This document shows positions 1 through 22,367 of a stretch of 64,000 bases of DNA, piece after piece. The stretch is taken from the sequence record NC_070984.1. One strand, written 5' to 3'. The notes below the pieces were generated by a model. That model searched no databases, was not told the origin of the DNA, and saw only the letters and a list, made by a program, of their open reading frames with translations. Within the stretch, counting starts at the first letter, position 1. Each line of letters opens with the position of its first letter. The stretch comes from Escherichia phage ES17. A program made the translations under genes and the position numbers.

Positions 1-92
1 TTACAAATGCCCCTGCTGAGATAAATTATCCTGCCAATTATGGGTTATATCTTGAAGTCATTGGCGTAGTTACAGGAGGAGGTGAGGTACGA

Positions 93-2135
93 GTGGTGCC
101 AGGGACAAACAATAATAACTACTACTCAGTTTTCTCTGTAAGCTGGACTGGAGGAGTTGGTTCCCGAGTATTTACAGTACGAGAAGAGCTGTCTTCCGCT
201 CGCCCTGTGACTATCTCTCAGGGTGGCACAGGGGCAACTACTGCAAGTGCTGCACGTACTAAACTTGGTTTAGGTTTGGTTTCCACTGAATCAATTGTAC
301 CTATTACCAAAGGTGGTACAGGAGCTACTTCATCAGAGAATGCTCGACTAGCTCTAGTTGCAGCTAAGAGTGGTGATAACTCTGATATCACCTCGATGAC
401 CAACAAGGTTACTTTCACACAATCTCCAGTAATTCCTGATGCTGTAGATGATAATGACGCGGTTGCTTTGAGACAGTTGCATACAAGTGAAGCAGATTTG
501 CTGGCAAGGCTGAAAAGTAGTAATGCAGGTGAAGGTGCATCCCTTATTACCTTTGAAAATGGTAATTCTGTTGAGAGTCTTTCCAGTAAAGATGGGGCTA
601 AAAACATTGGCAGTGGTGAGAGAAGTTTGCTTGTCCGTAACAACGACATTAAGCATTCAGGAGATTTCCCTACCTTACAAGCTGCGGTAAATGCATCGTT
701 ACCAAAAAACGACTTAATTGTTTCCCCCGGTGAATACAGTGAAGCGATTACTATTGGTAGTACACAGTTAAAGGGTGTTGGTGGAGCCACGGTACTGAAA
801 GCTCCGTCAAACTTTACAGACACTATTCAGGTTAAGGCATCTACGCCTCATTGGCAATTCCGCCATAGTGGTGGTTTTGCTATAGATGGTTCTGGGACAA
901 CCGGGGCTGTAGGTATTAGTTTTGACCCGACCGACCAATATGCTGGTCGTCACAACTTTAGTGACGTATACATCCATAACATTAACAAGGCCATTCAGAA
1001 ACCTTCCGGGAATATAGGTAATACATGGAAAGGCATTGGCGTGCAAGGTTGTGACTGGGGTTACTGGGCACAGTCTGCTTCTGAGATGCACTTAGGCTCT
1101 GACACCCTTCAGAACATGCACTTTGATGGTATTAGCACTTACTGTGTTTACTTGAACGCTACAACAGGAGAAGCGCCTGGTACATTCGGAGGTGGTGTAG
1201 GCGGCTGGTGGATTAAAGATAGTATTATGGAAGCCTCTGGCGGTGGTGGTATTTACCTCAAGAACAAGGATGGTGACTGCCCTACTGCCCCATGTGGTGT
1301 ATCCAATGTATGGATGGAAGCTATCGCTACTACTCCAGCTATTAATGTAGATGGTGTATCTCAGAAGCCTCGTGTCCTTAAACTTATTGATACCAGTATC
1401 TTCTTTGCAGAGTACACATACCTTAATAACGTAGAGCTTCAGAACTCCAACCTTGTTACTTATGGCTGCCGAGTAGATAATTCAGATGGCCACATGGATA
1501 TCTCTGTAGATGCCAACAGCAGTTTTGTGGCTGATCAATTGTACCTGAATGGTAGCTCCGGCAAAGATGTAATGGTACGTTCTGTAGCGGCTCAGACAGG
1601 CAAGATTGGGCAAAGCTGGACACCTAATATGAGTATGCGTGGATACCTGCCGGAAGGATACATCTATCGTGTACCTGGTAATAAGCTGGTAGTTAAACCC
1701 TTCGATGGAGGTACTGCTGAATTTAGTGGTACGGCAAGCAGCACTGGGAGTTTGCAGCCACAAGGCCAGTTATCTCAGAGCTGCATGTACTTCGAAATCC
1801 CTGGTGCTGCTGAGTATGAGCTTACTGGTGCTGCATTTCAGATAACTTCCGGTAACTGGTATGTATGGGGCATTAGCACTGAACTGGTACAGGGAACCCC
1901 TACAAACTTCCGCATCGGTGGAGATATCAATGTAGGTGAAGTATTTACTAAGGGGGGCCAGTGGGTGAGTACCTTTGGTGTAGCTCAGGCTAGTGCTTCC
2001 GGTTCAGTGAACCTGCGCCTAAGTACAGCCGGTACAGGCGGAGTAGTCCTACGCCTCGCTGATTACTTCGTAGCGGAGTTCACTACTCAGGCAGAGGCTA
2101 TGCGCTTCGCTAATAGTAGACGTGCCCTGCGTTAA
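93..2135 (+). CDS. Tail fibre / tailspike protein
   Basis: 680-aa ORF, GTG start after AGGAGGAGGTGAGG; N-terminal ISQGGTGATTASAARTKLGLG motif typical of phage tail fibres; frame is open back to window start so true N-terminus may lie upstream. Confidence 0.6.
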   Translation: MVPGTNNNNYYSVFSVSWTGGVGSRVFTVREELSSARPVTISQGGTGATTASAARTKLGLGLVSTESIVPITKGGTGATSSENARLALVAAKSGDNSDITSMTNKVTFTQSPVIPDAVDDNDAVALRQLHTSEADLLARLKSSNAGEGASLITFENGNSVESLSSKDGAKNIGSGERSLLVRNNDIKHSGDFPTLQAAVNASLPKNDLIVSPGEYSEAITIGSTQLKGVGGATVLKAPSNFTDTIQVKASTPHWQFRHSGGFAIDGSGTTGAVGISFDPTDQYAGRHNFSDVYIHNINKAIQKPSGNIGNTWKGIGVQGCDWGYWAQSASEMHLGSDTLQNMHFDGISTYCVYLNATTGEAPGTFGGGVGGWWIKDSIMEASGGGGIYLKNKDGDCPTAPCGVSNVWMEAIATTPAINVDGVSQKPRVLKLIDTSIFFAEYTYLNNVELQNSNLVTYGCRVDNSDGHMDISVDANSSFVADQLYLNGSSGKDVMVRSVAAQTGKIGQSWTPNMSMRGYLPEGYIYRVPGNKLVVKPFDGGTAEFSGTASSTGSLQPQGQLSQSCMYFEIPGAAEYELTGAAFQITSGNWYVWGISTELVQGTPTNFRIGGDINVGEVFTKGGQWVSTFGVAQASASGSVNLRLSTAGTGGVVLRLADYFVAEFTTQAEAMRFANSRRALR

Positions 2136-2159
2136 GAGTAATGACATTACTATAAGCAA

Positions 2160-2180
2160 AACCCCGCTTAGGCGGGGTTA
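2160..2180 (+). terminator. Stem-loop after tail fibre gene (CCCCGC-TTAG-GCGGGG)
   Basis: Perfect 6-bp GC stem 25 nt after stop; no clean U-run on plus strand, so weak as intrinsic terminator. Confidence 0.35.
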
Positions 2181-2361
2181 GCTTCCATAGGGTAGTTGTT
2201 TTCCCTGATGTAGTGGAATTTATCGGAGACAATGAGCTGGCTGCTTTGTTGCATTCTGATAAATAGTTCATAACTCCCCTTCGAGGCCTTTAGTAGTAAG
2301 TACCTTTAGTAAGTAATGAAACTAATATATCCCAAGAGGTTAATACATAGGAGACAGATAA

Positions 2362-2580
2362 ATGAAAATGATGAAACAAGCTGCATATGGTTTAATATGC
2401 TTAGGCGCAGGTGTTGTGGTATCCACCGCAGTTCCTGTAGGCGCAGTTCATCCATTAGTTACAGCACCTTCTCCAGTAGAGAAGCTTAGCTCTCAATGTA
2501 AACAGAGAACAATTCAAAATAACCTAGTTGTTATTTGTCCTGATGCTGAATCTAACGCTCTGAGAAAGATACTACCTTAA
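2362..2580 (+). CDS. Small membrane/secreted protein upstream of endolysin (possible lysis accessory)
   Basis: 72 aa, N-terminal hydrophobic segment GLICLGAGVVVSTAV; RBS GGAGACAGATAAATG. Confidence 0.4.
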   Translation: MKMMKQAAYGLICLGAGVVVSTAVPVGAVHPLVTAPSPVEKLSSQCKQRTIQNNLVVICPDAESNALRKILP

Positions 2581-2609
2581 TTTAAAGGGACCACAAAAGG
2601 AGGTTAGAA

Positions 2610-3101
2610 ATGGATAACGCCGCATTGCCACCTGTACAATTAAACTTAAGCCCAGCTGGAATGGAATTCATTATGAAGCATGAAGGTATGAGAACCAAGG
2701 CTTATAAAGATTCCGCAGGCATCTGGACGATATGTGTAGGGGCTACGCGCGATATGAATGGTTATCCGGTTAGACAAGGATTAACGTATTCTATAGAGGA
2801 TTGTCTAGCTCTGCTAGATAGAGACACACAAGACTCTGTTCGTGCTACTCAGAAGAACATAAAAGTTCCTTTACTAGTTCATGAGTTTGATGCACTCACT
2901 TCTTTCAATTTTAATGTTGGAAGTGGTGCTTTGAGCACATCTAAGTTAAGGAAGGTTATCAATGGAGATGTTAAAGGGGATATTTATTCCGAATTTCTTC
3001 GTTGGGATAAGATAACGGTCAAGGGAGTGAAGCAGAGAAGTCAGGGTCTTCATAACAGAAGGGTTGCAGAAGCTGATCTTTATACCGAAGGTAAATATTA
3101 A
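2610..3101 (+). CDS. Endolysin, GH24 (T4/lambda-type) lysozyme
   Basis: HEGMRTKAYKDSAGIWTICVGAT matches GH24 catalytic Glu / Asp / Thr region; RBS AAAGGAGG. Confidence 0.85.
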   Translation: MDNAALPPVQLNLSPAGMEFIMKHEGMRTKAYKDSAGIWTICVGATRDMNGYPVRQGLTYSIEDCLALLDRDTQDSVRATQKNIKVPLLVHEFDALTSFNFNVGSGALSTSKLRKVINGDVKGDIYSEFLRWDKITVKGVKQRSQGLHNRRVAEADLYTEGKY

Positions 3102-3113
3102 TGGAGGTGCCTC

Positions 3114-3917
3114 TTGGCTATTGAAACTAATGCGGTAGTAGTTACCGACTTAAACCCACTCTATCCTCGTGATAGAGATTATATCTATGAAGGTGCAGCC
3201 CAGCTGCGCCTAGTTAAGCAAGTATTACAGAACACATTCCCCAACTTAACTGAGCCTATGACTGTAAACTCTGACACACTAGCTGCTATCTCTGACAAGA
3301 TCTCTTTTGCTGGTGACTATATGGATGTTGGTGGTTTGATGATTAAGAATGGTACAGCAGGTACTGGTAATAACGACTTTACCACCAAAGCCCAAATGGA
3401 ATCTTTTATGCTCAACTGGATGCAGAATAAGATTTACAGGGTTGGGTCTTATTACATCACTGAGGAAGATATTAACCCGGGAGATTCTACATCTTTAGGG
3501 TTTGGTATCTGGACACAAGTTACTGGTGTTATCATGGGTGCTGGGGTTGTGACCCCTGATGGGACAGTCCCTAATGCTCAGCGTGTGGAGTTTACTGCTG
3601 GTGCTACAGGTGGTCGTGTTTACAACACAGTTAAGACAGAGAACCTGCCATTGACTACAATCTCTGGTTCAAGTTTTTCTCTTTCTAACTATACACACTC
3701 ACATACTACATCATTTGGACGTGGAGATGCAAGTGGACATAACAGCTCACCTAACTGGTATAATCCGGGGGTTAGTTATTCTGTTGCATCAAGTTCTGAT
3801 ACTCACACCCACACCATTACAGGTGATGCAACATTTGGCTATGATGATGTATCTCGTCAACCTATAAATACGTTACCACCCTTCCGTGCAGCATATATCT
3901 GGAGACGTATCAGTTAA
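3114..3917 (+). CDS. Putative tail fibre / structural protein
   Basis: 267 aa, TTG start, Gly/Ser/Thr-rich, sits in structural gene run. Confidence 0.4.
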   Translation: MAIETNAVVVTDLNPLYPRDRDYIYEGAAQLRLVKQVLQNTFPNLTEPMTVNSDTLAAISDKISFAGDYMDVGGLMIKNGTAGTGNNDFTTKAQMESFMLNWMQNKIYRVGSYYITEEDINPGDSTSLGFGIWTQVTGVIMGAGVVTPDGTVPNAQRVEFTAGATGGRVYNTVKTENLPLTTISGSSFSLSNYTHSHTTSFGRGDASGHNSSPNWYNPGVSYSVASSSDTHTHTITGDATFGYDDVSRQPINTLPPFRAAYIWRRIS

Positions 3918-3926
3918 GGAGGAAGT

Positions 3927-6884
3927 ATGGCTCTTTACCCAATAAAATCTTTGGGTGCGGTTGGTGTTATTGCCGACCAATCTCCTACAGATCTGGCTCC
4001 TAATGCATTTACTAATGCAATTAATGCTCGGTTTGTAGAACAGCGTGTGTTTAAGACGGGGGGCTCTGCCCCTCTTTCTTACGTTGAAAGTGATAAAGAA
4101 ATAAGACCATTATCATTCACTTCAATGCCTTTTGACTACTTCAGTGCTAACAATAGTTTCTTACTGGTAGGTACAGATAAGAGTATTTTTAGATTAAATA
4201 ATGAATCTATGGTTGATGTTAGTCGAAGAGTGGCTACAGTCACCAAAAAAGCAGTATCTTATGTCAAGATAAACCCCGTACTAACAGAGATCGTCCCTAA
4301 AGAAACATCTGTTATTATGAATCTTAATGAAAGCAAGGTTCTCGAGGTATCTCTTCTTCCAGAAGGTGTTGTTACTCCATCCCTTGTGTGGGAGGTTAGT
4401 AATCCCTCCTATGGTTCAATATTAGTTGACCCTGATGATAGTAAGAAAGCTACATTGAGTGTCTTATCTAATGAGGGTAGCTTTACTGTCACTGTCTCTA
4501 ATGAAGATGAATCTGTAACTACCAGTATCTCCGTAAAGGTTGTTGATTCTGATTCTGGTATCTTCCTTAACCGGGACTCTGTTCAACTTCGTAAAGGTGG
4601 AACAACCACACTTACAGCAACAACCAGCAAGACCCCACTAACGTGGACTTCTTCTAACCCGTCCATTATATCTGTGGCGCCTAATGGTGACACTACTACA
4701 GCAATATTAACCGCTCAAGGAGTAGGTAATGCACTGATAACAGTAAGCAATGGGTCTAAAACCTCGGAATGCTCTGTTAGTGTTATCAATCAGATTGACA
4801 GTATATCTTTAAGTCAAACAGATTTACAAATTAACCGTGGGACGTCATATGTCTTATACTCTAGTTTAATTCCATCAAATGCTGCAAATCAGAGAATAAC
4901 TTGGACTTCCTCTAACCCAAATATCGCCACTGTTTCGGGAACAGGTCTTCAAGGAACTGTCTCTGGGTTAACTGCTGGGTTTACAGTTATAACAGCAACT
5001 ACGGAAGAAGGTGAAAGGACCGCCACCTGTAACGTCAGGGTTGAGTTATCAAGTAGGGCCCTTTTTTCTGCTGCATCAGCTCCTTCTGAAGAACCTAGTT
5101 CTACGGATTCAGATATTGACACCTCATCTATGTCAGAGGGCAATGCTTTTTATGACTATTCTATGGTTGATGGTGTTGAAGCCTATTCTATAAATGAAGT
5201 CATGTCTAGGTCAACTCAGCTTGAATCCTTAACTCTTGACATTGTGGATACTGAAATTGATGTTGGAGATGAGTTAGTAATAACTGCAACGGCATTCCCT
5301 GAAGGGGAGTACCTTTATAATTGGGTGGTAGATCAGCCGGGGTATATATCCTCTACTTCCACTACCGACTCTTCCTTTACCTTAACTGCTATTAAGACTG
5401 GCAAAGTGAAGATAACCTGCACTGCTAGTCAAGTAGCTCGTAGAGACTATGAAGCATTTGAGAAGTATCCTTGGTATAATACGATTATCTCTAACTGCGC
5501 AGTATTCACTACTCACTACGAAACCCCTCAAGTAAAAGAGTTTGCCTCTGAGTATTTCACAGATCTTCCGGGGTGGGGTGAGCAGACAATAGTAGATGCT
5601 AATGGGAACCCTTCTGTTGTAAAATATAACTGGAAGTGCGAAAGGATTCGTGCATTTAATAATCGTCTATTTGCTCTTAATATGCGAGAGTCTAATGCAT
5701 CAGGAGTTACTACTCACTACCCTCTTCGACTTCGCTGGTCTAACTATGCTAATGAGAATAAGGCACCTACTTTATGGGATGATTTTGCTTATGATAGATA
5801 TGTGACTTCAGATTTAGCAGCAAATGTTGTAGGTCAAACTGAGGCTCTAGAAAATGGATATGCCGGATACATAGATTTAGCTGACTCAAACGGTAGCTTA
5901 GTCGAAATTCTTCCTCTTAAGGATTATCTATTTATCTATACGGAGTTTGAGACTTACATTGGATCCCCAACTAACAACACATATCAACCTCTAATGTTCA
6001 AGAAGCTCTTCAACGACTCTGGAATCTTAGCACCTGAGTGTGTAGTTGAAGTTGAGAGCGGACATTTCGTGGTCACTCAGAATGATGTTATTCTACACAA
6101 TGGTGCAACCAAGAAGTCTATTGCATCTAACAGGGTCAAGAATATGCTTATCAACGAAGTGTGTTTAGTAAACCCTTTGGCTACTAAAGTTCATCTTCAC
6201 CAAGACAAGAAGGAAGTGTGGATTCTTTATGTAGGACCCGGAGAACCTGCTGGGAGCTTTGCTTGTACGAAAGCCGCTGTATGGAACTATGAGTTTGATA
6301 CGTGGTCTTTCCGTACAATCCCATTCTCTCATTGTATTGGTTTAGTCGATCCTCCTACTTTAGAGAAAGGTCCTACTTGGGTTGATTTCCAAGAGTACAC
6401 TTGGGATGACCCTTCAATCAGTGAACTTGTGTGGAGAAAGGATTCTACTAACTTCCGTCAGAGAGTTACTGTAGTAGGTTCTTGGATGAAAGGTTTTTAC
6501 CAAGTGGACATAGGTCCTTATGACTACTCTTATGATAGGCTGAATGATATTGTTGTCAAAAAGCCCCTAGAGATGAGACTGGAAAGAACTGGTATAGATT
6601 TTGACAACGTAACTAATGAATGGAATCAAAAGCACATAAACCGATTCCGTCCACAAGTAACCGGGTCAGGTACGTACATATTCCAAGCTGGTGGTAGTCA
6701 GTATTCGGATCAAGAGGATAGGCATATTCATAGTGAAAAGTCTTATACAATTGGTGTGGACAGACATGTAGGTGTCCGACTGAACCATCCGTATCTATTC
6801 TATAATGTTATAGATAATGATGTTAACAGTAATGCAGCAATCAATGGTCTAACTATTGAGTTTGCTGTTGGCGGGCGAAGATAA
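3927..6884 (+). CDS. Large structural protein with bacterial Ig-like (Big_2-type) repeats
   Basis: 985 aa; three repeats of the LTWTSSNPSIISV...TAxGxG..ITV type between aa 130-360. Confidence 0.55.
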   Translation: MALYPIKSLGAVGVIADQSPTDLAPNAFTNAINARFVEQRVFKTGGSAPLSYVESDKEIRPLSFTSMPFDYFSANNSFLLVGTDKSIFRLNNESMVDVSRRVATVTKKAVSYVKINPVLTEIVPKETSVIMNLNESKVLEVSLLPEGVVTPSLVWEVSNPSYGSILVDPDDSKKATLSVLSNEGSFTVTVSNEDESVTTSISVKVVDSDSGIFLNRDSVQLRKGGTTTLTATTSKTPLTWTSSNPSIISVAPNGDTTTAILTAQGVGNALITVSNGSKTSECSVSVINQIDSISLSQTDLQINRGTSYVLYSSLIPSNAANQRITWTSSNPNIATVSGTGLQGTVSGLTAGFTVITATTEEGERTATCNVRVELSSRALFSAASAPSEEPSSTDSDIDTSSMSEGNAFYDYSMVDGVEAYSINEVMSRSTQLESLTLDIVDTEIDVGDELVITATAFPEGEYLYNWVVDQPGYISSTSTTDSSFTLTAIKTGKVKITCTASQVARRDYEAFEKYPWYNTIISNCAVFTTHYETPQVKEFASEYFTDLPGWGEQTIVDANGNPSVVKYNWKCERIRAFNNRLFALNMRESNASGVTTHYPLRLRWSNYANENKAPTLWDDFAYDRYVTSDLAANVVGQTEALENGYAGYIDLADSNGSLVEILPLKDYLFIYTEFETYIGSPTNNTYQPLMFKKLFNDSGILAPECVVEVESGHFVVTQNDVILHNGATKKSIASNRVKNMLINEVCLVNPLATKVHLHQDKKEVWILYVGPGEPAGSFACTKAAVWNYEFDTWSFRTIPFSHCIGLVDPPTLEKGPTWVDFQEYTWDDPSISELVWRKDSTNFRQRVTVVGSWMKGFYQVDIGPYDYSYDRLNDIVVKKPLEMRLERTGIDFDNVTNEWNQKHINRFRPQVTGSGTYIFQAGGSQYSDQEDRHIHSEKSYTIGVDRHVGVRLNHPYLFYNVIDNDVNSNAAINGLTIEFAVGGRR

Positions 6885-6890
6885 TACTAA

Positions 6891-6918
6891 GGGAGCTTCG
6901 TGCTCCCTTTTCTTGTTT
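6891..6918 (+). terminator. Intrinsic terminator
   Basis: GGGAGC-TTCG-TGCTCCC hairpin followed by TTTTCTTGTTT, 7 nt after stop of 3927-6884. Confidence 0.65.
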
Positions 6919-6934
6919 ATTATAAGGAGGGTCT

Positions 6935-7903
6935 ATGGGTGCTGGTGGCTTTCGTAAGAATACCGGAAGAAACAACACAACACAACCTTATAGTGTGGGC
7001 TTTCTAAACACCTCTGAGAGTGTAGAAACCAATAACGTTGCAATATATGATGAACTCCAGAACATTAGCACTGCAACCAATCAAATGTTCCAAGCTATAG
7101 ATGAAATCCACGAGGAGATTGATGTTCGTATTAAAGCTCTTCATGCTATGAATTTGCAATTCGATGAATTAGAGAACCGTGTTACAACAGAGATTGAGAC
7201 TGCCATTGCAGATATCATAACACAAATGGGTAATCTATCCACTGATGATATTTGGGATAACTCTGTTCAGCCTCCTGTTAAGTTAGATTCAACTATGTCT
7301 GGTATTAAGACTTCTATAGAAGGCAATACAGCATCTATTCAAACTGTCGAAGGCATTGTCAATGATCAAGGACAAGAGATTGCCCTTATTCAGTCTGATT
7401 TAACTAACGGGACAGGTAGTGCTTCTCAATATATGAAACTCACTGAATATGAAGCTACTTGGGGAGTAAATTCCACAGTAAATGGAAAGACAGCAGGAGT
7501 AAAACTGACAAATAATGGTTCTGTAAGCCAATTCCAAGTCACAGCTGATAAGTTTGTGGTATCTGATGGCACATCAGGAAGTACTCCCTTCAAGGTTGAG
7601 AATGGAAGGGCTGTTATGGAGTTTGCTGATATTACTAATGTCAATATTACAACAGCTCAAATAGCAACAGCTAGGATTGAATGGGCACAGATTGATAATG
7701 TTAGTATAACAAATGCACAAATCACAAGTCTCTCCGCTGATAAGATAACGGCTGGGTCTATGTCAGGGACTAATTGGCGTCTTACAGTTGGCGGTGACTT
7801 TGTTTTAGGTGGAACAGGTGGTGCACAATTATGGATGAATGGAAACAGAATAGATTTCTACGACGGAAGTGGTGCTCTAAGAATTAGAATAGGGAGTTGG
7901 TAA
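6935..7903 (+). CDS. Virion structural protein (tail-associated?)
   Basis: 322 aa ORF with RBS AAGGAGGG; no recognisable catalytic motif. Confidence 0.4.
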   Translation: MGAGGFRKNTGRNNTTQPYSVGFLNTSESVETNNVAIYDELQNISTATNQMFQAIDEIHEEIDVRIKALHAMNLQFDELENRVTTEIETAIADIITQMGNLSTDDIWDNSVQPPVKLDSTMSGIKTSIEGNTASIQTVEGIVNDQGQEIALIQSDLTNGTGSASQYMKLTEYEATWGVNSTVNGKTAGVKLTNNGSVSQFQVTADKFVVSDGTSGSTPFKVENGRAVMEFADITNVNITTAQIATARIEWAQIDNVSITNAQITSLSADKITAGSMSGTNWRLTVGGDFVLGGTGGAQLWMNGNRIDFYDGSGALRIRIGSW

Positions 7904-7904
7904 T

Positions 7905-8936
7905 ATGGCATATGGAATATGGACACAACCAGTAGGGCCGGGGCCAGCAACCCCCGCTCCCTTGTTTATTGATAGCGGAAGTACTTTCCCTCAGTTCAAG
8001 AATAGTATAAGAGGGAGCTTTAACTTTAATGGAGCTGGGAGATCTTTCCCTATTAGTGGATGGGATGGCAGTGGTCAGATAGTTATTGTTCCTACCGGTT
8101 CTTTATGCTGGCAATGGGAAGTCCCTCCTAACCTAGTTCCTGATGTTTATTGTGTGAATAATATCTATGTAGAAAACAACTCCTCTTTTAGAGTTACTCT
8201 GAATCAGAACCCCGGTAGTAATCCACTATTCGATTGTGGGTTCAACGTATATCAAATATGGCCTAGAGCGGATAGGAATTATGGAATTACCTTTTCTAAT
8301 ACAGCAGACTACTTCTCAATATCTGACAGTGGGGTCGTCGGTCAATGTATTTGGGCTTGGCAGGGGACCATAAACAATGCCCTTCAGATACCAAATATCG
8401 GTGGGTTCAATATGACCAATGCTGTTGTGTTTGCTAATTGGTCTGATGGAGGGGTAGGACTATCTTATACCTCTGATGACAGGGTTATTCGCGTCTATCA
8501 GAACAGACCCTATGTCAACGGAAACACTAATGAAGGAGGGTCTGTCTTTGCGAGGGTTGCCGTATTCTGTAACGGAGCTGGTGTTCCTGAGCATAATGGA
8601 GGTTTGAATATTTACTCTCCGGGTACCACACAATGTGTCTTCTCTACTAACAGAACACCTTTCACTGTGGATACTTTTATAGGATCAGGAGGTGGTAACA
8701 CGGGAATGTCATACCCCATGATACCTCTTACCTCTGGGATAGGTGCAATAAAAGGCCGAGGCAGTGGATGGAGATATCAGCAAATGAGATCTCACACAAT
8801 GAGTGGTTCTACGATAGGAACTGGCTATGGAAGGTATTTGTTTCAGTGGGATCAAAATTACGACCTAGGAGCTGATACTGTAGTTAATTTATCAGTCCCT
8901 GTAATAAATGCAGCTAAGGTTTTTGCTGGACTATAA
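7905..8936 (+). CDS. Virion structural protein
   Basis: 343 aa; start overlaps previous stop (TAATATG); Gly/Asn-rich. Confidence 0.4.
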   Translation: MAYGIWTQPVGPGPATPAPLFIDSGSTFPQFKNSIRGSFNFNGAGRSFPISGWDGSGQIVIVPTGSLCWQWEVPPNLVPDVYCVNNIYVENNSSFRVTLNQNPGSNPLFDCGFNVYQIWPRADRNYGITFSNTADYFSISDSGVVGQCIWAWQGTINNALQIPNIGGFNMTNAVVFANWSDGGVGLSYTSDDRVIRVYQNRPYVNGNTNEGGSVFARVAVFCNGAGVPEHNGGLNIYSPGTTQCVFSTNRTPFTVDTFIGSGGGNTGMSYPMIPLTSGIGAIKGRGSGWRYQQMRSHTMSGSTIGTGYGRYLFQWDQNYDLGADTVVNLSVPVINAAKVFAGL

Positions 8937-8948
8937 CAAGGAGATATT

Positions 8949-9731
8949 ATGGCAATTAAAATGGGTATTGAAGAACTAGACCCAATGGTTCAACAGGCTT
9001 CAAAGAAGTATGGGATTCCTGCTGCTTTGATTCATGCTGTAATCCAAAGAGAGTCTAGTGGTCGTCCTACAGTAGCTTCTGGAACTGGTCCTGTAGGTTT
9101 AATGCAAATCAGTAAAGGGTTGGCTAAAGACTACGGATATAAATTGGAAGATAGATTGGACCCAGCAAAGAATATTGATATGGGTGCTCGGTATATCAGA
9201 GACAACCTAAAAGCTTTTAACGGTGACGTCAAGAAAGCAATGGTTGGTTATTCAGAAGGTATCGGCGGAGCTAAGCAAATGTTCGCTGGTAAAAGAGGGT
9301 TTACTCCACAGGCTCTTGATTCAATGAACAATAAACACTTTCTTCCTTTCTATGGTGATGCAGCTTCTCAGATTGCTAACCCTATTGGAGCTTTGCAAGC
9401 TGTTCAACCAGTTAACCAGTTTAGTCCGGATACTCTTGATAGAGAGAAGGCTGCTCAAGCTCCGACTCAGGCAGAAATTGCTGCTTCTAAGACTGGTGCT
9501 TTAGGCGGCAATCCAGTAGAGTTTTACTCTGATGAAGCACAGGAAGGAGAAGATCAGAAGCCTCAACAGAACTTTGGTAATGCAGTATTAGGAGTAGCTG
9601 CTATGCTTGCTGGTAAACCTCCTACTTCTCAAACAGTTCAGAGGGCAAGTGCACCACATGCAGCAGGTTCTCAGTACAGTCCACAAACACAAGCAGTGCT
9701 CAGACGTTTGGCTAGCATTGGTGTGAAGTAA
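8949..9731 (+). CDS. Lytic transglycosylase (SLT domain) virion protein
   Basis: ALIHAVIQRESSGRPTVASGTGPVGLMQI matches the SLT catalytic E-S ... GLMQ motif. Confidence 0.8.
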   Translation: MAIKMGIEELDPMVQQASKKYGIPAALIHAVIQRESSGRPTVASGTGPVGLMQISKGLAKDYGYKLEDRLDPAKNIDMGARYIRDNLKAFNGDVKKAMVGYSEGIGGAKQMFAGKRGFTPQALDSMNNKHFLPFYGDAASQIANPIGALQAVQPVNQFSPDTLDREKAAQAPTQAEIAASKTGALGGNPVEFYSDEAQEGEDQKPQQNFGNAVLGVAAMLAGKPPTSQTVQRASAPHAAGSQYSPQTQAVLRRLASIGVK

Positions 9732-9750
9732 TAATCGTTAAGGAGGACTT

Positions 9751-10803
9751 ATGTCTTTATTTGGAAAATCAGCTTCTAGCAAAACCACAGTGGCTCCTTC
9801 CTCTCAGGTTGATGCCCTGCTGAAGCAGATTGTTGCTAATGCTCAGAATATGCAGAACAACGATCAGGGTTTTATTTCCCAACAGCTGGCTGGGTTCAAT
9901 GGCAACCAACAAGGTGCTCTGAATAACTTAGCAGCTTCCACAACTCAAAAACAATTGGCTAATATGTACACACCTCGTACACAGCAAGGATTGGACCAAC
10001 TAAATGCTCTTGCCCAACAGTATCAGAATATTGTTAATAGTGGTGGAGTGACGGCTGAAGGGGTTAATAACTTTAGTAAAGGTTTGAATAACTCAGCTCT
10101 TGCACAAGCTACTAGCAAAGCAGCTTCTAATGTCTCTCTTGGTAATGGCTCTGACTCTGGCTCTCTCCGTAGGGCTGCGGCTCAAGGGGCTGCTTTGAAT
10201 GGTGCTAACACTAACCTGTCTCGTACTATCAGTGGCAAGAATATGGGGATCAGTGCTCTTCAACAAGACCAAAACTTCCAGAGAGGCTTACTTGGTGCTC
10301 AGTCAGGGTTAGCTGGACAGAATCTCAATCTTGGTGCTCAAGGTGTTCAGGCAACTCAACAGGCTATTCAGAATCAGCTCATGGCTGGTAATTTACAACA
10401 GCAGCAAGCTCAGGCTCAAGCTGATATCAATTGGCAGAACGCTATTGGCTCTCAGCAGTATGGATGGAATCAGCTTAACAACCAGCTTAATGTACTAAAC
10501 AGTGTAAGTCCAATGGCTGGATACACAATTAAGAATGCTGCTCCGGGAGTTAATGTTGGACAGCAGCTCCTAGGTGCTGGTATCACTGGATTAGGTATTG
10601 CAGGTCGTATGGGTGCTTTCTCTCCTAATCAACAGACTCAGAATGCTTGGAGTTCCTATAACAACTCAGGTGGGCAATCTGGAATGGCTGGTCCTATGAT
10701 TGGGGGTTCTAATCTTTCTCAACAGAGAGGTCAGTCTAACTGGTTATCCACAGCAGGTAGTAATATCTTAGGTGGTGTCTTAGGGGCATTTGGAGCAAAC
10801 TAA
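9751..10803 (+). CDS. Gln/Asn/Gly-rich internal virion protein
   Basis: 350 aa, low complexity Q/N/G; N-terminus MSLFG...FNGNQQGALNNLAAS paralogous to next gene. Confidence 0.4.
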   Translation: MSLFGKSASSKTTVAPSSQVDALLKQIVANAQNMQNNDQGFISQQLAGFNGNQQGALNNLAASTTQKQLANMYTPRTQQGLDQLNALAQQYQNIVNSGGVTAEGVNNFSKGLNNSALAQATSKAASNVSLGNGSDSGSLRRAAAQGAALNGANTNLSRTISGKNMGISALQQDQNFQRGLLGAQSGLAGQNLNLGAQGVQATQQAIQNQLMAGNLQQQQAQAQADINWQNAIGSQQYGWNQLNNQLNVLNSVSPMAGYTIKNAAPGVNVGQQLLGAGITGLGIAGRMGAFSPNQQTQNAWSSYNNSGGQSGMAGPMIGGSNLSQQRGQSNWLSTAGSNILGGVLGAFGAN

Positions 10804-10815
10804 AGGAGAATATCT

Positions 10816-11784
10816 ATGTCACTTTTTGGTGGAGGCGGAAGTAAAACTACTTCCCAAATGATTCGTCCTGAATACATTCAACAGTATATTGACCAGCTTA
10901 ATAAGCAGATTGGTAATACCAGTTCAGGGGATTATGTTTATCGAGATAATGTAGGGTTTAATAATAACCAGACAGAGGCACTTAACAACTTAGCACAATC
11001 TGGTGCTCTAGGAACTCTCTCACAGCAGTATATGGATGCAGCAGGTCAAGGGTTAGGGTATCTAGATAATGCCTATAAAGGCTATCAGAGCCTCTCTGGA
11101 CAAGGTGGGATTACTGGAGAACAGATTGGTGCTCTCGCTGGTCAATTATATGATGATGACGCTGTGCAAGCAGCCATTACAGCTAATAATGAACAAGTTC
11201 AACAGAATCTAGCACGTAATGCTCTTCCTCAGTTAGCTCAGCAGTATGCTGGTCAGCAAGGTTCAGGTGCTCGTATGGCTAAATCTTTTGCCCAAGGTGA
11301 TGCTCTGAATCAGATGCAAGGGCAAGCAACAGATATTACCAACAGTGCCTATAACTCGGCTATTAGTCAAGCTGAAAGCATTCTCTCTGGTAATAGACAG
11401 AATCAGGCAGCTGCTCTCTCTGGTCTTTCTACTATTGGTTCTAACCTTTCTAACCTAGGTCAGCAGGGTGCTAATTTGTCTCAACAGCAAATGATGAATC
11501 AATGGAATGCAGGATTGCAGCAACAACAGCAACAACAGAATGAATATGATAATGCCTACCAGAATGCTCAGAACGCAGCTAATTGGGGATGGCAAGATAT
11601 CAACAACCAACTCGGTGCAGCAGGTGTACTTAACGGTGCTCTCGGACAAACTACAACCACTAAAACCTCTGGTGGCAAAGGTGGTTTCCTTGGTGGAGCT
11701 ATGAGTGGTTCAGCAGCAGGCTCTTCCTTTGGGCCTTGGGGTGCATTAGCTGGGGGTCTAATCGGTGGGTTGGCTAGTACTTAA
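10816..11784 (+). CDS. Gln/Asn/Gly-rich internal virion protein (paralog of 9751-10803)
   Basis: 322 aa; MSLFGGGGSKTT...FNNNQTEALNNLAQS mirrors the upstream gene. Confidence 0.4.
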   Translation: MSLFGGGGSKTTSQMIRPEYIQQYIDQLNKQIGNTSSGDYVYRDNVGFNNNQTEALNNLAQSGALGTLSQQYMDAAGQGLGYLDNAYKGYQSLSGQGGITGEQIGALAGQLYDDDAVQAAITANNEQVQQNLARNALPQLAQQYAGQQGSGARMAKSFAQGDALNQMQGQATDITNSAYNSAISQAESILSGNRQNQAAALSGLSTIGSNLSNLGQQGANLSQQQMMNQWNAGLQQQQQQQNEYDNAYQNAQNAANWGWQDINNQLGAAGVLNGALGQTTTTKTSGGKGGFLGGAMSGSAAGSSFGPWGALAGGLIGGLAST

Positions 11785-11797
11785 TTAGGAGATAAAT

Positions 11798-13447
11798 ATG
11801 CAACAGACAACTTACGCTCAGGTCAGAAGTCGTGACCCGAGAAATACTTTCTATGGTGTTAATCCGGGAGCGGCTTCGGCCTCTCCTTATATGGCTAGAC
11901 CCGTTCAGACAGCAGATATTTCTATGTATCAACGACCTGCTGTACCTGCTGGGTTATCTGCTCTTGTAGGTCAAACTTCAGTTGATTATCAGAATATGTT
12001 GAATCCTGTTCAGAGTAATGGTCTTCCTTCTGACATTCCGAATGATGTACAACCTCAATCACAACAGGCTGTAACTCTTCCTGAGTTTGAGAACCAAGAA
12101 ACCATGCAAGCTGCTGGACTTTCTCCTTCTGCTATTCCTCAAGAATCAGAACCTCTTCCGGTAACACCTCCTACTAAACCGCTAGAAGCTGGTCCTATGG
12201 AGTTTACTCCTTCTCAGGTAGAACAGGCACAAGGTGTGATTAACACTCTTGCTCAAGGACAAGACACTGGTGATGGAATGGCTGCTGCTACTCGTGCTAA
12301 AGATCAAGAGCGTGTTAACAACGATATCTTGCAAGTTGCGAAAGCTAAAGACCCTTCAGAAGCTTGGAACAAACTACAGAAAGAACCATTCTATCAGAAC
12401 TCTAGTTTCTATACAGGTTTGATGGGTGTAGGTCTTTCCATTATGTCAGGTAAGTCTCCTATTGAAGCTTTCCAGATTGGTCAGGGAATGGCTAATCAGG
12501 ATGAGACTAAGAAGCAACTGGAAGCTAACCGTGATGCCTTGATTGAACAAGGCTTCTCTCAAGACTCGATCGCAGCTGCTATTGCTAACGGAGACCCGTC
12601 TCTACTGAAGATGAGAGCTGTAGACCCTGCTCAGAAAGAAGCGCTGTATGCTGCTCGTGAAGAACGACAAAATGCTGAATGGGATAGACGTCAACAGATT
12701 CAAGAGCAAACTATGCGTGAGCGTGCTGATGAAACTCGTCGTGCCGCTGAAGAAAGAGCTAACATGAACTTTGAACGTCAGAAAGAGTTGATTGGTTATC
12801 GTGATAAGGTTAAGGCTGAACGTGCTGAACAAGCTGCTCAGAGTTTTAACTTTAACCCGAAAGAAGTTCGTCTTGCTCAGAATACAGCTGAAGGTACGGT
12901 TGCTAAGCAGTGGGCAGAGAAAGGTGGCCTGTTTAACCAGTCTAACAAAGACTTGGATTTGGCTGATAAAGCTGTTAAGGATAAAGACTATCAGACAGCT
13001 CGTTCTGCTTACATGCAGGCTATCATGAACTCTGCAAGAGCTGAAATCGGTGCTACTCGTTCTCTTACCGAAGAAGACTTAGGGCACTTTGCAGAAGACC
13101 CATCAATCTTCGTTCGTGTTGGCAACAAGTTTGCACTGAAATCTGGATGGCGTCCTACTGATTCTGCTCTTGCTTATGCTCGTAAGCAAGCTAACGTTGG
13201 TCACACCTCTGCAATGAAAGGTGTTGCTGATGCTAAGAGAGCTACGATTGAAGCTTACATCGGTTCTGGTATGGATAAGAAGAGAGCTACTGCATTGGTT
13301 AACCGTGCAATCCCTTCTGGTGGTTTCTATGACCCTCTAGGTGTTTTCTCTGAACAAGCAGAAGAAGCAGTTGGTGGTGCAGTAACCAATCCTAAGCTTA
13401 ATGGTGCTTTATCAGCTGTCGAAGACACTAGCTGGTTCACTCAATAA
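11798..13447 (+). CDS. Internal virion / ejection protein
   Basis: 549 aa, charged coiled-coil-like centre (EERQNAEWDRRQQIQEQTMRERADETRRAAEERANM). Confidence 0.4.
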   Translation: MQQTTYAQVRSRDPRNTFYGVNPGAASASPYMARPVQTADISMYQRPAVPAGLSALVGQTSVDYQNMLNPVQSNGLPSDIPNDVQPQSQQAVTLPEFENQETMQAAGLSPSAIPQESEPLPVTPPTKPLEAGPMEFTPSQVEQAQGVINTLAQGQDTGDGMAAATRAKDQERVNNDILQVAKAKDPSEAWNKLQKEPFYQNSSFYTGLMGVGLSIMSGKSPIEAFQIGQGMANQDETKKQLEANRDALIEQGFSQDSIAAAIANGDPSLLKMRAVDPAQKEALYAAREERQNAEWDRRQQIQEQTMRERADETRRAAEERANMNFERQKELIGYRDKVKAERAEQAAQSFNFNPKEVRLAQNTAEGTVAKQWAEKGGLFNQSNKDLDLADKAVKDKDYQTARSAYMQAIMNSARAEIGATRSLTEEDLGHFAEDPSIFVRVGNKFALKSGWRPTDSALAYARKQANVGHTSAMKGVADAKRATIEAYIGSGMDKKRATALVNRAIPSGGFYDPLGVFSEQAEEAVGGAVTNPKLNGALSAVEDTSWFTQ

Positions 13448-13463
13448 GACCTAAGTCCTGCCT

Positions 13464-13478
13464 TCTATAATGTATATA
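13464..13478 (+). promoter_or_regulatory. Candidate phage-sigma promoter motif TAATGTATA
   Basis: CTATAATGTATATAGG 40 nt upstream of ATG 13515; same 9-mer recurs at 23195-23203 (minus) and 23387-23395 (plus). Confidence 0.5.
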
Positions 13479-13514
13479 GGGGGTAGGACATTTTTATTTA
13501 TAAAAGGAGACGTT

Positions 13515-16500
13515 ATGGCTAACATTAAACCGTGGGAAGAAGCTTCCAAAGCTCCTGCGTATCTGAATGCCTCTCCGGAGCAACAAGCTCAAATGAGAGA
13601 ACAATATAAGGCAGCAGGTGGCTCTATTCCTGAGGAACAACCAGTAGCACAACCACAACAAGAAGAACGTGGTGCTATAGGTGAGTTTGCTCAAGGTGTG
13701 TCAAATGCTCTTCAATCTGGTGGTGCAAATATTGCAGCTAGTGCTGCTAAAGGTATTGGTGGTTTAGTTGAGATTGGTGAGAATCTAGCTGGAGCACAAA
13801 CTAGTTATGGTAAGCGTATCCAAGAGAACTCTCAGAATCTTCTGAAAGAACGTATGGATAAGATTGAGGATGGGATTGGTAAAACTGTCGGTCAGTATGC
13901 TGGCGTTGCTGGTGATATCGGTTTGACAGTTGCTAACCCATTGGCTGCTGCTGCTATCATCGCAGGTCGTGAGACAGGTCGTGCATATGCAGACCAAACC
14001 CCTGAAGAGGGAGAAGATAAGTCTATTCTAGATGCAGCCTTAGTTGGTGGTGCTAACTATGCGGCTCAGAGAATCCTTCCGGGTGCTGTCGGTACAGCTG
14101 AGTCCACACTTGGACGTATTGGTCAGAACGTTGCTAGTAACGCAGTGGCTGGTGCTAAAGGTGGCGCTCTTGTGGGTGCTGCTGAAGCTCAGAACAAGCA
14201 TGGAGATGATACAACCTTTGCTAATGTATTAGAGGGTGCTATCGAAGAAGGTGCTATGGGTGCTGCATTCGGTGGTGCAGTTGGTGGAGTTCATGGTTTG
14301 ATTAGCCGTCCAGATTCTGCTGTCTTCAAGAATACTCCAGAGTATGCGAAGACTGATATTGCTGCTGATGATGAACTAATTCGTAGTGCTAAGAATATTG
14401 ATGAACTGAAAGAAGCTTACTCTAAAGCTGAAACTGCTAACGCTGCTTCTGCTCTGAATCTTCTGGATGAGAATGGATTCCGTATTACAGATGCTGTTGC
14501 TGTGGATTCTCCTGCTGCTCAGCGTATTCTTAATACTGACCAAGCTCGTGCTGAGAAAGCTGCTTCTGTTCAGAAAGAACATTCCAACATTCCGGGCCTT
14601 AATCCTTTAGCTTCTCCTGCTAAGACTCGTGGTAAAGCATTTGCTGATAATGAGCACAACCAGAAGCAGGCTGTTGCTATGAAGGATGCAATGGCTGACT
14701 ACACCAAAGACAACACGAAAGCTCTTACAGATGTTCTAGATAACCTAGACCGTGAATTAACTTCTCTCCGAGCTTCTGGTGATTTTACTGGTAGTCCGAT
14801 TGATATTAAGAATCGTACACAAGCTGACCGTGATTTCATTGATGCTTACAAGACTTTCTACAATGAAGCAAATCGATTCAAAGCTCGTGAAGGTGAAGAT
14901 TTTAATAACTTTGTAGAGAAAGCTACTGAACTACAGAAGATGGCTGATAATGTTTCTCCAGAGATGAAGAAAGCTATCGGTGGGTTGAAGAAACTGAAAG
15001 GTATGCCTGAAGGTTTTAATCCTATTCAAGATGCTTATACTCTGAACAATACAGCTAAATTCATGAGCAACCAAGATCGTGGTTGGACTTCCTTGACTGA
15101 TGATGGATTCCGTGAAGCTTCTTCACCTAGTCTGGTAATGAACACTCTTGGTGCTGCTAAGTATGCTCTGAATCGCTTCTCTTCTCAGCGTGCTCGTTCT
15201 CAACGTGTTAAGCAACAAGAATCTAACAGTGAAGCTATCCGCTCTCTTGCTCGTGGTGATTTGGAAGTTGCTCGTGCTAAATCTACTGCTGATGAAGCTC
15301 GTGCTAAGATGGAAGAAGAACCAGTTGTTGATGACATTAAATTTAAGACGCAAAATGACGTAGAAACCGAACCGGTTCGGGAGCCTTCTTCTAGTACTGT
15401 GACGGAAGAAAATCTTCCTTCTTCTACTCCTCAAGAGACTCCTCTTACAGCTCGTGATTTAGTTGCGCAAAGACGCGCTATCCGTCAGGCTGAACAGCGT
15501 CGCGCTGAAGAAGAGGCATTGGCTGCTCAAGAAGCTCCGGTCGAACAGGCTCCACAGGCTGAACCTCTCCCTGCTCGTAACCCTCTAGAGGAGCGTCGTG
15601 CAATGGAACAGCAACGTGCTCAAGAAGAGGCCGCACAGGCTCCAGAACCTACCGTAGAGGAACCAACAGTCAAAGCTGAGCCATTACCTGCCCGTGCTCC
15701 TAAAGCTCCTAAGGAAGCTGTACAGGACGTTAAACCGGCAAGTGGTGTAGAACGTTTAGCTGCTATGTCTAGTGCTGCTCGTCAGGCTACTAAAGATCGT
15801 GCAGAACGCTTTGCTCGTTCTCTGTACTCTAAGGCTGCTAAAGCTAAAGCTACTGCTGAAAACTTCTTGGCTTATAAAGGTGATCCTAAGGAACTGATGC
15901 GTCGTATTCGTCAGGAAGATAATGCTATCAACACTGAACGTCATGAAGAAATGGCTCGTAACCAGTTGGCTTCTCAGCAAGGTATTGCTACTGCTAAGAA
16001 CAACACTGTACGAACTAATTTTGCTGAATGGGTTAAGGAACGTGGTCTGCCAGAAGACATTGCTACTAAGGCATTACGTGCTGAAGAGAAAGGTTTAGGT
16101 GGGAACGTAACTAACTTGGATAGTCTGAAACGTCGTGCTGAAAGGTTGTATCAGAAGCAGCGTGAAGATGAGTTTGATAGACTGTACCAACAAGCTCTAG
16201 AAGAGAATAAAGCTTTCGATAACAAGAATGCTCCTAAGCTGGTTGACCAGAAGAAAGAGCTTCAGTCTGAGATTGATACTTTGATTGATGCAGAACCTTT
16301 ACGTCCTGCTCAGAAAGACGCTATGCGTAAATTGATGAATGACTTTGTAGATGGAAAGTTTAAATCTTCAGAGAAGGCTGGTAGGGAAGAGGCTTTGGAA
16401 GTTGGTCAGATGAAGGATATTTGGGATGGGTTTATTAACACCTATAACAGAGAAGTGAATGCCTTCAACAAAGCTAACAAGAACTCTCAGTACGAAGCTG

Positions 16501-17936
16501 CTGCTAAGCATTTACAGGCTCGTGAAGAACGTCTTGCTACACTCAGGAAAAAGGCTCAGGCTCGTTCGGATGCTAAAGCTGCTGTTGAGAATGAACGTAA
16601 AACTCTAGAGGCTATTGCAGCTCAGAAGAGTGAGATTGAGAAGATGATGGAAGGTTTACCTAAACCTGTTCGTGAGGCTCAGGAATCTCGTACACTGAAA
16701 CAGTTGGCTGCTCACCACGATAAGAACTCTCCAGTTCCTCCAGAGAAGTTCCGTAGTTATATTGAACGTATTCACAACGCCGAGTCAGATTACCTTGATC
16801 GTCAGCGCCGTTTGACTGATGCAGAGGAAGATGCTCGTCAGGCTAAGTGGAACAAGATGTATGAACAAGCGGAAGAGATGAACCGTAAGTTTGATGTGGA
16901 CAAGAGAGTTAAGCGCAGTGAAGAGCTTAAAGCGGCCCAAGAGCGTGAGAATGACCTTATGGCAGTACAACGTCAACGTGATGACATTCATCGCCGCCTG
17001 ATGCGTACTATGGAAGATAAGGGCATATCTAGAGAGGATGCTGAAGCATTTGCTGGTTCCTATATGGATAACCGTTATGCACTTCTTGAGAAGCCTATGA
17101 CTCCTACTGAACATCAGAATGCTCGTTCTCGTATCGAAGCTGATGTTGAGAAGTTTGCTAAGAAGTACGAATCAATGACTCCTATCGAGAAAGAGATTGT
17201 TAAGGTTACTGGAGATACTGAAGGTAAGCTTGATAACTTGGATGCGGATACTAGGAAGGCTATTGAGGAGGCTCAGAAGGTTGACTCTGATATTAAGAAA
17301 CTGCAAGAGGAAGAGTTGGAGATGGAGAAGATTCGTTCTGCTCTGCCTGATGATGAAAGATCTCAAGCAAATTCTGATATCTTGGAAAGCATTAAACAAC
17401 AGGAAGAGGTCTTTGCTGATAAAGTAGAGAAAGCTTTCTTGAGTGGGAAGAGCTTGGATGAGTTGGCTAGTGTGGCTGAAGTTTTAGACAGGGTTCATGG
17501 TGCAGATAAGGCTGGTAACAACCGTCGCTTTGTACGTGCATTGCAGACTGCTGCTGAAAACAAGAAGAAGTATGGTGATAATCCAGTAGCTTGGTTTAGT
17601 GCTGATGATTACTCTGCCATTGCTAAACTTGGTGCTTCTTCCGCAGGTGGTAACAAATCCAGAGCACTGGAGAAGATCTTTGGTTCTACAGCTGAACAGG
17701 CTAAGAGTAAGTTGCTTGGTAGGGATGATGTAGCGAAGATGAGACGTGTGATTGAAGATAACCCTGATATTAAGATTCCTTCTTACAAGACAACGAATCG
17801 TACTGAGTACTTGCAGTTCTTGGAGAAGTTTAATGACGAAGGGAAGCCTAAGATTAAACGTGGCTCATTGTCAGAGAAGCTTGAACGCAGTAAGCGTCAA
17901 TCGAGACTCCGTGTAAGAGTTCGACCTAAGGAGTGA
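13515..17936 (+). CDS. Large (1473 aa) Ala/Glu/Lys-rich virion protein (internal core / ejection protein candidate)
   Basis: ATG 13515 with RBS AAAAGGAGACGTT; track ORF start 13470 overlaps the promoter motif and is rejected; long charged helical regions. Confidence 0.5.
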   Translation: MANIKPWEEASKAPAYLNASPEQQAQMREQYKAAGGSIPEEQPVAQPQQEERGAIGEFAQGVSNALQSGGANIAASAAKGIGGLVEIGENLAGAQTSYGKRIQENSQNLLKERMDKIEDGIGKTVGQYAGVAGDIGLTVANPLAAAAIIAGRETGRAYADQTPEEGEDKSILDAALVGGANYAAQRILPGAVGTAESTLGRIGQNVASNAVAGAKGGALVGAAEAQNKHGDDTTFANVLEGAIEEGAMGAAFGGAVGGVHGLISRPDSAVFKNTPEYAKTDIAADDELIRSAKNIDELKEAYSKAETANAASALNLLDENGFRITDAVAVDSPAAQRILNTDQARAEKAASVQKEHSNIPGLNPLASPAKTRGKAFADNEHNQKQAVAMKDAMADYTKDNTKALTDVLDNLDRELTSLRASGDFTGSPIDIKNRTQADRDFIDAYKTFYNEANRFKAREGEDFNNFVEKATELQKMADNVSPEMKKAIGGLKKLKGMPEGFNPIQDAYTLNNTAKFMSNQDRGWTSLTDDGFREASSPSLVMNTLGAAKYALNRFSSQRARSQRVKQQESNSEAIRSLARGDLEVARAKSTADEARAKMEEEPVVDDIKFKTQNDVETEPVREPSSSTVTEENLPSSTPQETPLTARDLVAQRRAIRQAEQRRAEEEALAAQEAPVEQAPQAEPLPARNPLEERRAMEQQRAQEEAAQAPEPTVEEPTVKAEPLPARAPKAPKEAVQDVKPASGVERLAAMSSAARQATKDRAERFARSLYSKAAKAKATAENFLAYKGDPKELMRRIRQEDNAINTERHEEMARNQLASQQGIATAKNNTVRTNFAEWVKERGLPEDIATKALRAEEKGLGGNVTNLDSLKRRAERLYQKQREDEFDRLYQQALEENKAFDNKNAPKLVDQKKELQSEIDTLIDAEPLRPAQKDAMRKLMNDFVDGKFKSSEKAGREEALEVGQMKDIWDGFINTYNREVNAFNKANKNSQYEAAAKHLQAREERLATLRKKAQARSDAKAAVENERKTLEAIAAQKSEIEKMMEGLPKPVREAQESRTLKQLAAHHDKNSPVPPEKFRSYIERIHNAESDYLDRQRRLTDAEEDARQAKWNKMYEQAEEMNRKFDVDKRVKRSEELKAAQERENDLMAVQRQRDDIHRRLMRTMEDKGISREDAEAFAGSYMDNRYALLEKPMTPTEHQNARSRIEADVEKFAKKYESMTPIEKEIVKVTGDTEGKLDNLDADTRKAIEEAQKVDSDIKKLQEEELEMEKIRSALPDDERSQANSDILESIKQQEEVFADKVEKAFLSGKSLDELASVAEVLDRVHGADKAGNNRRFVRALQTAAENKKKYGDNPVAWFSADDYSAIAKLGASSAGGNKSRALEKIFGSTAEQAKSKLLGRDDVAKMRRVIEDNPDIKIPSYKTTNRTEYLQFLEKFNDEGKPKIKRGSLSEKLERSKRQSRLRVRVRPKE

Positions 17937-17943
17937 TAAAAGA

Positions 17944-17980
17944 AAAGCCCCAACCGAAAGGAAGGGGCTTTATTTGTTTC
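17944..17980. terminator. Bidirectional intrinsic terminator at convergence of plus and minus transcription
   Basis: GCCCC ... GGGGC stem flanked by A-run upstream and TTTATTTGTTT downstream. Confidence 0.7.
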
Positions 17981-18125
17981 TAAGTTTTAAAAACCATCAA
18001 ATTCGTCATACATCCCAATTCTCTTCAGAAGTCTGGATGTTCATCTTCAAAGCATCCTGAGATGCCTCCGTAGAACCAATCTGATTTATTGCCAAGAATG
18101 ACAACTTCTTCATTCATATACCCTC

Positions 18126-18287
18126 CTAGATTGTGTTTATAAAATTAGTAAGTTTCTCTTCACTTTCATCAAAAGCTTTTCCAGCTGCTTCCATCTCCCA
18201 AGTATCGGCATTGTCAATAAAGCTCTGAGCTTCTAATAGGTCGTGGATTAAGTCGAAGAGTTTATTTTTATCTGCTTGTGTGATCAT
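18126..18287 (-). CDS. Small acidic protein (53 aa), not in ORF track
   Basis: ATG 18287 preceded by AGGA RBS; MITQADKNKLFDLIHDLLEAQSF... Confidence 0.3.
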   Translation of the reverse strand: MITQADKNKLFDLIHDLLEAQSFIDNADTWEMEAAGKAFDESEEKLTNFINTI

Positions 18288-18295
18288 GTCAGTTC

Positions 18296-18523
18296 CTAGA
18301 TTAAATCGTAATACTGAATAATGTCAGAGAGTTTGAACTCTCGAATCTCATCTTTCTCTACATCTATCGCTGTCATAATCCAACAAGGTTTGCCACCGTT
18401 ATGAAAACGGGAGCTAGCAACGGAGGTTCGGAGTGGAATAACGGACCGGTCAGCAACCTCGCCTCTCCAATTGCGATAGCGAAAGCGAAGCACTTGTTGC
18501 GTAGATTTTTGACCATCACTCAT
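18296..18523 (-). CDS. Hypothetical protein
   Basis: ATG 18523 overlaps stop of HNH gene (ATGA); track ORF extended to 18664 is probably too long. Confidence 0.35.
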   Translation of the reverse strand: MSDGQKSTQQVLRFRYRNWRGEVADRSVIPLRTSVASSRFHNGGKPCWIMTAIDVEKDEIREFKLSDIIQYYDLI

Positions 18524-18917
18524 TTCCTTTTTTGAATTGTTTTCTTGCATCATTCTCTTCTTTTGTTTTAATCTTATGACAAGGGTCTTTACACAGAACC
18601 TGAAAACCTTCTTTCTCACACAGAGCACGAGAGATGATCTCATCCCAAGTGGCTTCATGGTCAAGAGGAACTATAGGCTCTATGTGGTCAATAGCCATAT
18701 CCTTTACAGGGTGGTCAGAACCACACATGGCACACTTAAAGTGCATTGCCAGTCTACCTGTCTTTGGATTAATCTTCTGCTCTGTCTTGGCGTCTGCTAG
18801 TGCATCGAACATGGGCTTCCACTTTCTAGTCAGAGAACGAATCCCTGACTTGATAAAAGAATTGTAACGAGCTTCAGTCCACATTCCAGAGCATCTAGTC
18901 TTCTCAGCCTTCGCCAT
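18516..18917 (-). CDS. HNH endonuclease
   Basis: CAMCGSDH ... DHIEPIVPLDH ... CKDPCHKIK zinc-liganded HNH motif. Confidence 0.75.
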   Translation of the reverse strand: MAKAEKTRCSGMWTEARYNSFIKSGIRSLTRKWKPMFDALADAKTEQKINPKTGRLAMHFKCAMCGSDHPVKDMAIDHIEPIVPLDHEATWDEIISRALCEKEGFQVLCKDPCHKIKTKEENDARKQFKKGNE

Positions 18918-19108
18918 AACCTACACTCATATCATCTTCTTCCCATACACGTTTATCTACTCGGTGTGATACTTTTTCACGTTTTTCTTTAATATAGCGG
19001 TTGCCTAATTCGTGGCTATATTTAATACGCTGCTCTTTACGAGATTCACGGTTGGAGGAGTTTTCATCATATGAACGATAATCAAATTTACCCATTATAA
19101 TATCCTTA

Positions 19109-20803: not shown

Positions 20804-20813
<10 letters not shown>
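19914..20813 (-). CDS. P-loop kinase, dNMP-kinase-like, with N-terminal extension
   Basis: Walker A ILNGPPGCGKDT resembles T4 gene 1 dNMP kinase GxxxSGKDT. Confidence 0.5.
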
Positions 20814-22097
<1,284 letters not shown>

Positions 22098-22340: not shown

Positions 22341-22367
22341 CAACGAAAAAGCCACCCGAAGGTGGCT
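22341..22367 (-). terminator. Intrinsic terminator (UUCG-tetraloop hairpin)
   Basis: Minus-sense AGCCACCUUCGGGUGGCU followed by UUUUUCG, 20 nt after stop of SSB gene. Confidence 0.75.

Follow-up and report, generated by a model that had tools for sequence, protein, structure and literature searches.

Bases 1–92 of the Escherichia phage ES17 window almost certainly lie within a long tail-fibre gene that begins upstream

The 5′ edge of the analysed window (64,000 nt of Escherichia phage ES17, one strand, NC_070984.1) almost certainly cuts a single 1021-codon long tail-fibre gene of Kuravirus, with bases 1–92 being ordinary coding sequence and the GTG at position 93 (GTG93) an internal codon rather than the gene start. 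The gene truncated at the edge is already known, having been annotated and studied experimentally. In the annotation of the window its first gene is best entered as 5′-partial (codons 312–1021 of the ES17 long tail fibre) and not as a 680-aa protein from GTG93; if GTG93 were taken as the start, the adaptor-docking N-terminus would be lost and a receptor-binding protein studied for heparan-sulfate binding would be misdescribed.

On the + strand, frame 3 (bases 3, 6, 9 …) is free of stops from its first codon until the TAA at 2133–2135, confirming the first-pass annotation, which had reported no stop between position 1 and the GTG, and its translation from the window edge reads TNAPAEINYPANYGLYLEVIGVVTGGGEVRVV... 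(in longer form, TNAPAEINYPANYGLYLEVIGVVTGGGEVRVVPGTNNNN...). GTG93 is the earliest ATG, GTG or TTG of this frame within the window, and both remaining + frames contain stops within 1–92. A protein database search matched the 710 aa encoded by 3–2132, with 100% identity and 100% coverage, to residues 312–1021 of the 1021-aa "tail fibers protein [Escherichia phage ES17]" (QPL11059.1 / YP_010673306.1; here P0001), from a phage with a published genome length of 75,007 bp (MN508615; PMC7885116). Window base 1 is the second base of codon 311 and base 3 opens Thr312, placing GTG93 at Val342. The string AGGAGGAGG (74–82), previously suspected to be coding sequence rather than a ribosome binding site (RBS), corresponds to the last base of Thr335 plus Gly336-Gly337-Gly338, in support of that suspicion.

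DNA upstream of the window was read in three relatives with 99.9–100% DNA identity here: myPSH1131 (Kuravirus; MG983840), Logan contig L007 and record "J1" (MZ417522). By megablast, myPSH1131 is 99.9% identical over the full length of window 1–3000, and window 1–9500 aligns without gaps to myPSH1131 6340–15839 (6 mismatches); the part of the fibre encoded in the window shows 2 aa differences, and the order adaptor, fibre, holin, lysin is the same. The corresponding myPSH1131 ORF (5409–8474; 1021 codons) is unannotated in MG983840, and starts at an ATG at 5409, in the context taaGGAGataatATG, directly 3′ of a 250-aa gene. L007 encodes a protein identical to P0001 at 6001–9066; window base 1 is equivalent to L007 6932, and five base differences separate window 1–8135 from this contig. 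Upstream in L007, the frame first meets a stop at 5989, the TAA that ends the adaptor gene; this TAA lies 943 nt from window base 1 and 12 nt from the ATG. Over a 1401-nt query that takes in both the start of the gene and the edge of the window, MZ417522 shows 100% identity, and its Prodigal-called CDS, an independent call, uses the same ATG. In these relatives the ATG, located 931 nt 5′ of window base 1, is preceded by GGAG, and no in-frame stop was found immediately upstream of that base in any of the three. The earlier proposal that the tail fibre may begin upstream of the window is thus supported, the window carrying residues 312–1021 of the 1021-aa protein. Translation would begin at this ATG, with the GGAG as putative RBS, just past the adaptor stop. 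When the N-terminal 311 aa were compared with the window by tblastn no copy was found elsewhere in it, and the far end of the window therefore does not carry the 5′ part of the gene. An exact search of window 1–60 against IMG/VR viral contigs gave no match.

Homology to the fibres of Shigella phage SGF2 and of Drexlerviridae is uninterrupted across residues 312 and 342, positions that fall deep inside those proteins. Residues 240–424 match (tblastn) SGF2 gp012 at ~462–599 of 944 aa and Drexlerviridae lateral tail fibres, e.g. that of JeanPiccard at ~180–285 of 842 aa, and phrog_24092 (tail fibre) covers residues 253–399. In the protein alignment TGGGEVRVVPGTN lies opposite GSALEVRIVPFTN (SGF2) and NGSNVVRISPSTT (JeanPiccard). 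The codon aligned to GTG93 is ATT (Ile) in both, and AGGAGG is absent from the homologous DNA spot (SGF2, GCTGGTTCAGCTTTA; JeanPiccard, AATGGAAGTAAC); these homologues thus conserve neither the Shine-Dalgarno (SD)-like string nor the GTG. An AlphaFold2 (AF2) model of the full-length protein (85 sequences; mean pLDDT 71.6) has a compact beta domain at residues ~290–375, with pLDDT of 83–90 at 291–340 and 351–370 and 67 at 341–350, and strands at 303–307, 325–334, 337–344, 354–360 and 367–374. Residue 312 is inside this predicted domain; the turn leading into strand 337–344 contains the first of the three Gly residues, and Val342 belongs to the strand itself. In the gene as we read it, AGGAGGAGG would encode a Gly-Gly-Gly turn and GTG93 the Val342 of a beta-strand in a small shaft domain.

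It is exceedingly improbable that a 680-aa gene truly starts at GTG93, with the open frame in 1–92 resulting from chance read-through of a spacer or of the tail of another gene. Thirty open codons by themselves are not beyond chance, as ~17% of 30-codon blocks are stop-free in the shuffled window (26% in the real window, + strand), an SD-like motif plus start codon is present at GTG93 (GAGG at 84–87, 5 nt 5′ of the GTG), and the fibre region is split into two ORFs in XT18 and myPSH2311. The breaks in XT18 and myPSH2311 do not coincide with GTG93, however, and all near-identical sequences have one uninterrupted ORF, excluding a separate 680-aa gene for all relatives. The in-frame stop expected shortly upstream of a separate gene is missing from 3–92, the nearest one in relatives being 943 nt upstream of base 1, and a conserved start and RBS are likewise missing, as seen from the ATT and the lack of AGGAGG in SGF2 and JeanPiccard. 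The annotated ES17 protein has 1021 aa and protein homology is continuous across the window edge; it is this homology to full-length proteins, and not the open frame, that decides the case.

A different possibility is that the full-length 1021-aa fibre is made together with a 680-aa truncated isoform, initiated internally at GTG93 behind AGGAGGAGG/GAGG, that would be free, tailspike-like and not attached to the virion. The SD-like sequence (74–87) is strong and its 5–10 nt spacing to GTG93 would be good for initiation, and several real genes of the window have AGGAGG as the core of their RBS (e.g. at 2598, 3917, 6925 and 9741). However, AGGAGG followed by a start codon within 3–12 nt occurs at 19 sites in the window (both strands), and only about one third to one half of these precede a long ORF that has an upstream stop close by, the others being incidental; the combination also arises by chance inside genes. 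Real starts in the window are ATG with a stop a few codons upstream. At the position homologous to GTG93 both the SD-like string and the GTG are missing (ATT in SGF2 and JeanPiccard; residues GTDLEIRVVP in P0002). From the AF2 model, the isoform would begin within a beta-strand and with half a domain, and it would be without the adaptor-docking N-terminus. A promoter scan found fewer sites than in shuffles and so gave no hint of a promoter within the gene ahead of GTG93. Internal initiation is thus considered very unlikely, and it is equally unlikely that such an isoform would be released at lysis beside the virion-bound fibre and, in soluble form, bind or degrade glycans, a role for which the motif is the one supporting element. 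The single 1021-codon gene starting upstream of the window is retained as the preferred reading.

The part of this gene outside the window resembles the long tail fibre of phage SU10. Residues 1–226 match residues 1–223 of SU10 gp12 (PDB 7z47_D; E = 7e-81), as expected of a gp12-type N-terminus, and phrog_10305 matches residues 1–227 of P0001. In SU10, gp12 is the long tail fibre proximal protein, trimers of which attach to the adaptor ring through the N-termini together with the coiled coil (PMC9509320) and start adsorption, triggering nozzle formation (PMC9509320). By analogy with SU10, the N-terminal ~90–226 residues would dock the protein trimer onto the adaptor ring, and we infer that the N-terminus outside the window is the virion-attachment part; if so, a protein initiated at Val342 would have no means of being mounted on the tail. 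The gene directly upstream encodes an SU10-type adaptor (match to PF24175, SU10_adaptor). The gene order in L007 is PF24175 adaptor, fibre, 72-aa holin, Phage_lysozyme, Gp10_C short fibre and Big_2 nozzle, and the window ORFs at 2362, 2610, 3114 and 3927 fit this order, as would be expected for a Kuravirus long tail fibre.

Likeness to SU10 gp12 thus covers the N-terminal 226 residues, the position after the adaptor gene and the 'QGGTGA...LGLG' shaft motifs. Tandem Repeats Finder detected no DNA-level tandem repeat for the GGTGA shaft motifs. In contrast, SU10 gp12, at 786 aa, relies on gp13, a separate distal protein, for the receptor-binding tip, while the ES17 fibre is one 1021-aa protein ending in its own tailspike module. 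No gp13 gene is present between fibre and holin, either in window 2136–2361 or in the same interval of L007. The ES17/myPSH1131 lineage has one fused 1021-aa long-fibre gene; SU10 and SGF2 each have two fibre genes.

The C-terminal module, inside the window, matches phrog_27367 (E about 1e-233), and its ~520–540 aa have 64–66% aa identity to tailspikes or fibres of Golestan-like siphophages and of LM33_P1 (Kayfunavirus). LM33_P1 and the Golestan-like siphophages have this module in common with the ES17 fibre but their N-terminal attachment parts are unrelated to it (T7-type, TSP-N or P22 head-binding domains). AF2 pLDDT is mostly 83–96 over residues ~530–1020, and a Foldseek search of the model against the PDB returned CBA120 TSP4 (E = 5e-9), K2-2 TSP (Klebsiella), Sf6 TSP, Depo32 and P22 TSP, in keeping with a predicted right-handed parallel beta-helix. 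A Pfam search with the full-length protein found no family at E ≤ 0.1, including any beta-helix or pectate-lyase family. The module probably binds host surface polysaccharide. The cloned and purified ES17 tail fibre protein (ES17-TFP) binds heparan-sulfate glycans (PMC7885116); the ES17 paper deals with glycan binding only, with no depolymerase activity shown (PMC7885116), and its authors had already pointed out the similarity to LM33_P1 and myPSH1131 (PMC7885116). ES17-TFP and the window gene are the same gene, identical over 710 residues with no detectable difference, the window version being without the first 311 codons. As a mobile cassette, the module occurs behind at least four different virion-attachment N-termini (Kuravirus gp12-type, T7-type PF03906, TSP-N PF18668 and P22 head-binding PF09008), carried by phages as well as by E. 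coli and Citrobacter prophages; the P22-type head-binding domain precedes it in prophage tailspikes.

Table 1 Features at and downstream of the 5′ edge of the window.
Feature	Position	Strand	Description and evidence
Long tail-fibre gene (ES17-TFP), 3′ two-thirds	1..2135	+	Last 2 bases of codon 311, codons 312–1021, TAA 2133–2135; 5′ 931 nt outside the window; translation, 100% aa identity, DNA colinear with myPSH1131 and L007
AGGAGGAGG, Shine-Dalgarno look-alike, coding	74..82	+	Absent at the homologous spot in SGF2 and JeanPiccard
GTG, internal codon Val342	93..95	+	ATT in SGF2/JeanPiccard; predicted strand 337–344
Compact beta domain (predicted), C-terminal three-quarters (residues ~290–375), cut by the window edge	3..194	+	AF2 model; SGF2/JeanPiccard homology; phrog_24092
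Two 'QGGTGAT...AR..LGL' fibre-shaft motifs (residues 376–436)	195..377	+	Align to SU10 gp12 483–543, phrog_6921, phrog_11393
Tailspike-type receptor-binding module (residues 479–1021), predicted right-handed beta-helix plus CBM-like jelly roll	504..2132	+	phrog_27367, aa identity, AF2/Foldseek
G+C-rich hairpin AACCCCGCTTAGGCGGGGTT	2160..2179		25 nt after the tail-fibre stop, before the holin gene

The hairpin downstream of the tail-fibre gene (Table 1) has a T-run on its - strand side only, a terminator pattern that fits the strand opposite to the genes.

The divided fibre regions of XT18 and myPSH2311 were considered as support for a two-gene arrangement and rejected, as the breaks lie elsewhere than at GTG93 and both look like assembly problems. 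In XT18 (OR757434; L003) the annotation divides the tail fibre between two overlapping CDS, of 353 aa and 684 aa, and the frame break (4604–4671) consists of a short duplicated stretch within a perfect tandem 'VPISKGGTGAINTTIARSNLGLGDVSVENI' repeat, likely due to an assembly or sequencing error or to a repeat-mediated indel. In myPSH2311 (L002; 6602–6710) the tail-fibre ORF is broken by an unrelated 109-nt segment that replaces window 101–285 (185 nt); this segment had no match in phage or E. coli collections and the substitution is probably an assembly artefact. MZ417522, recorded as 'UNVERIFIED: Mycolicibacterium phage J1' (24,953 bp; taxonomy line Microviridae), carries Kuravirus capsid, adaptor and tail fibre genes. 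Its 13184–22584 segment (L004) is 99.9–100% identical to window 1–1759 and the region upstream, and the record looks mislabelled or chimeric.
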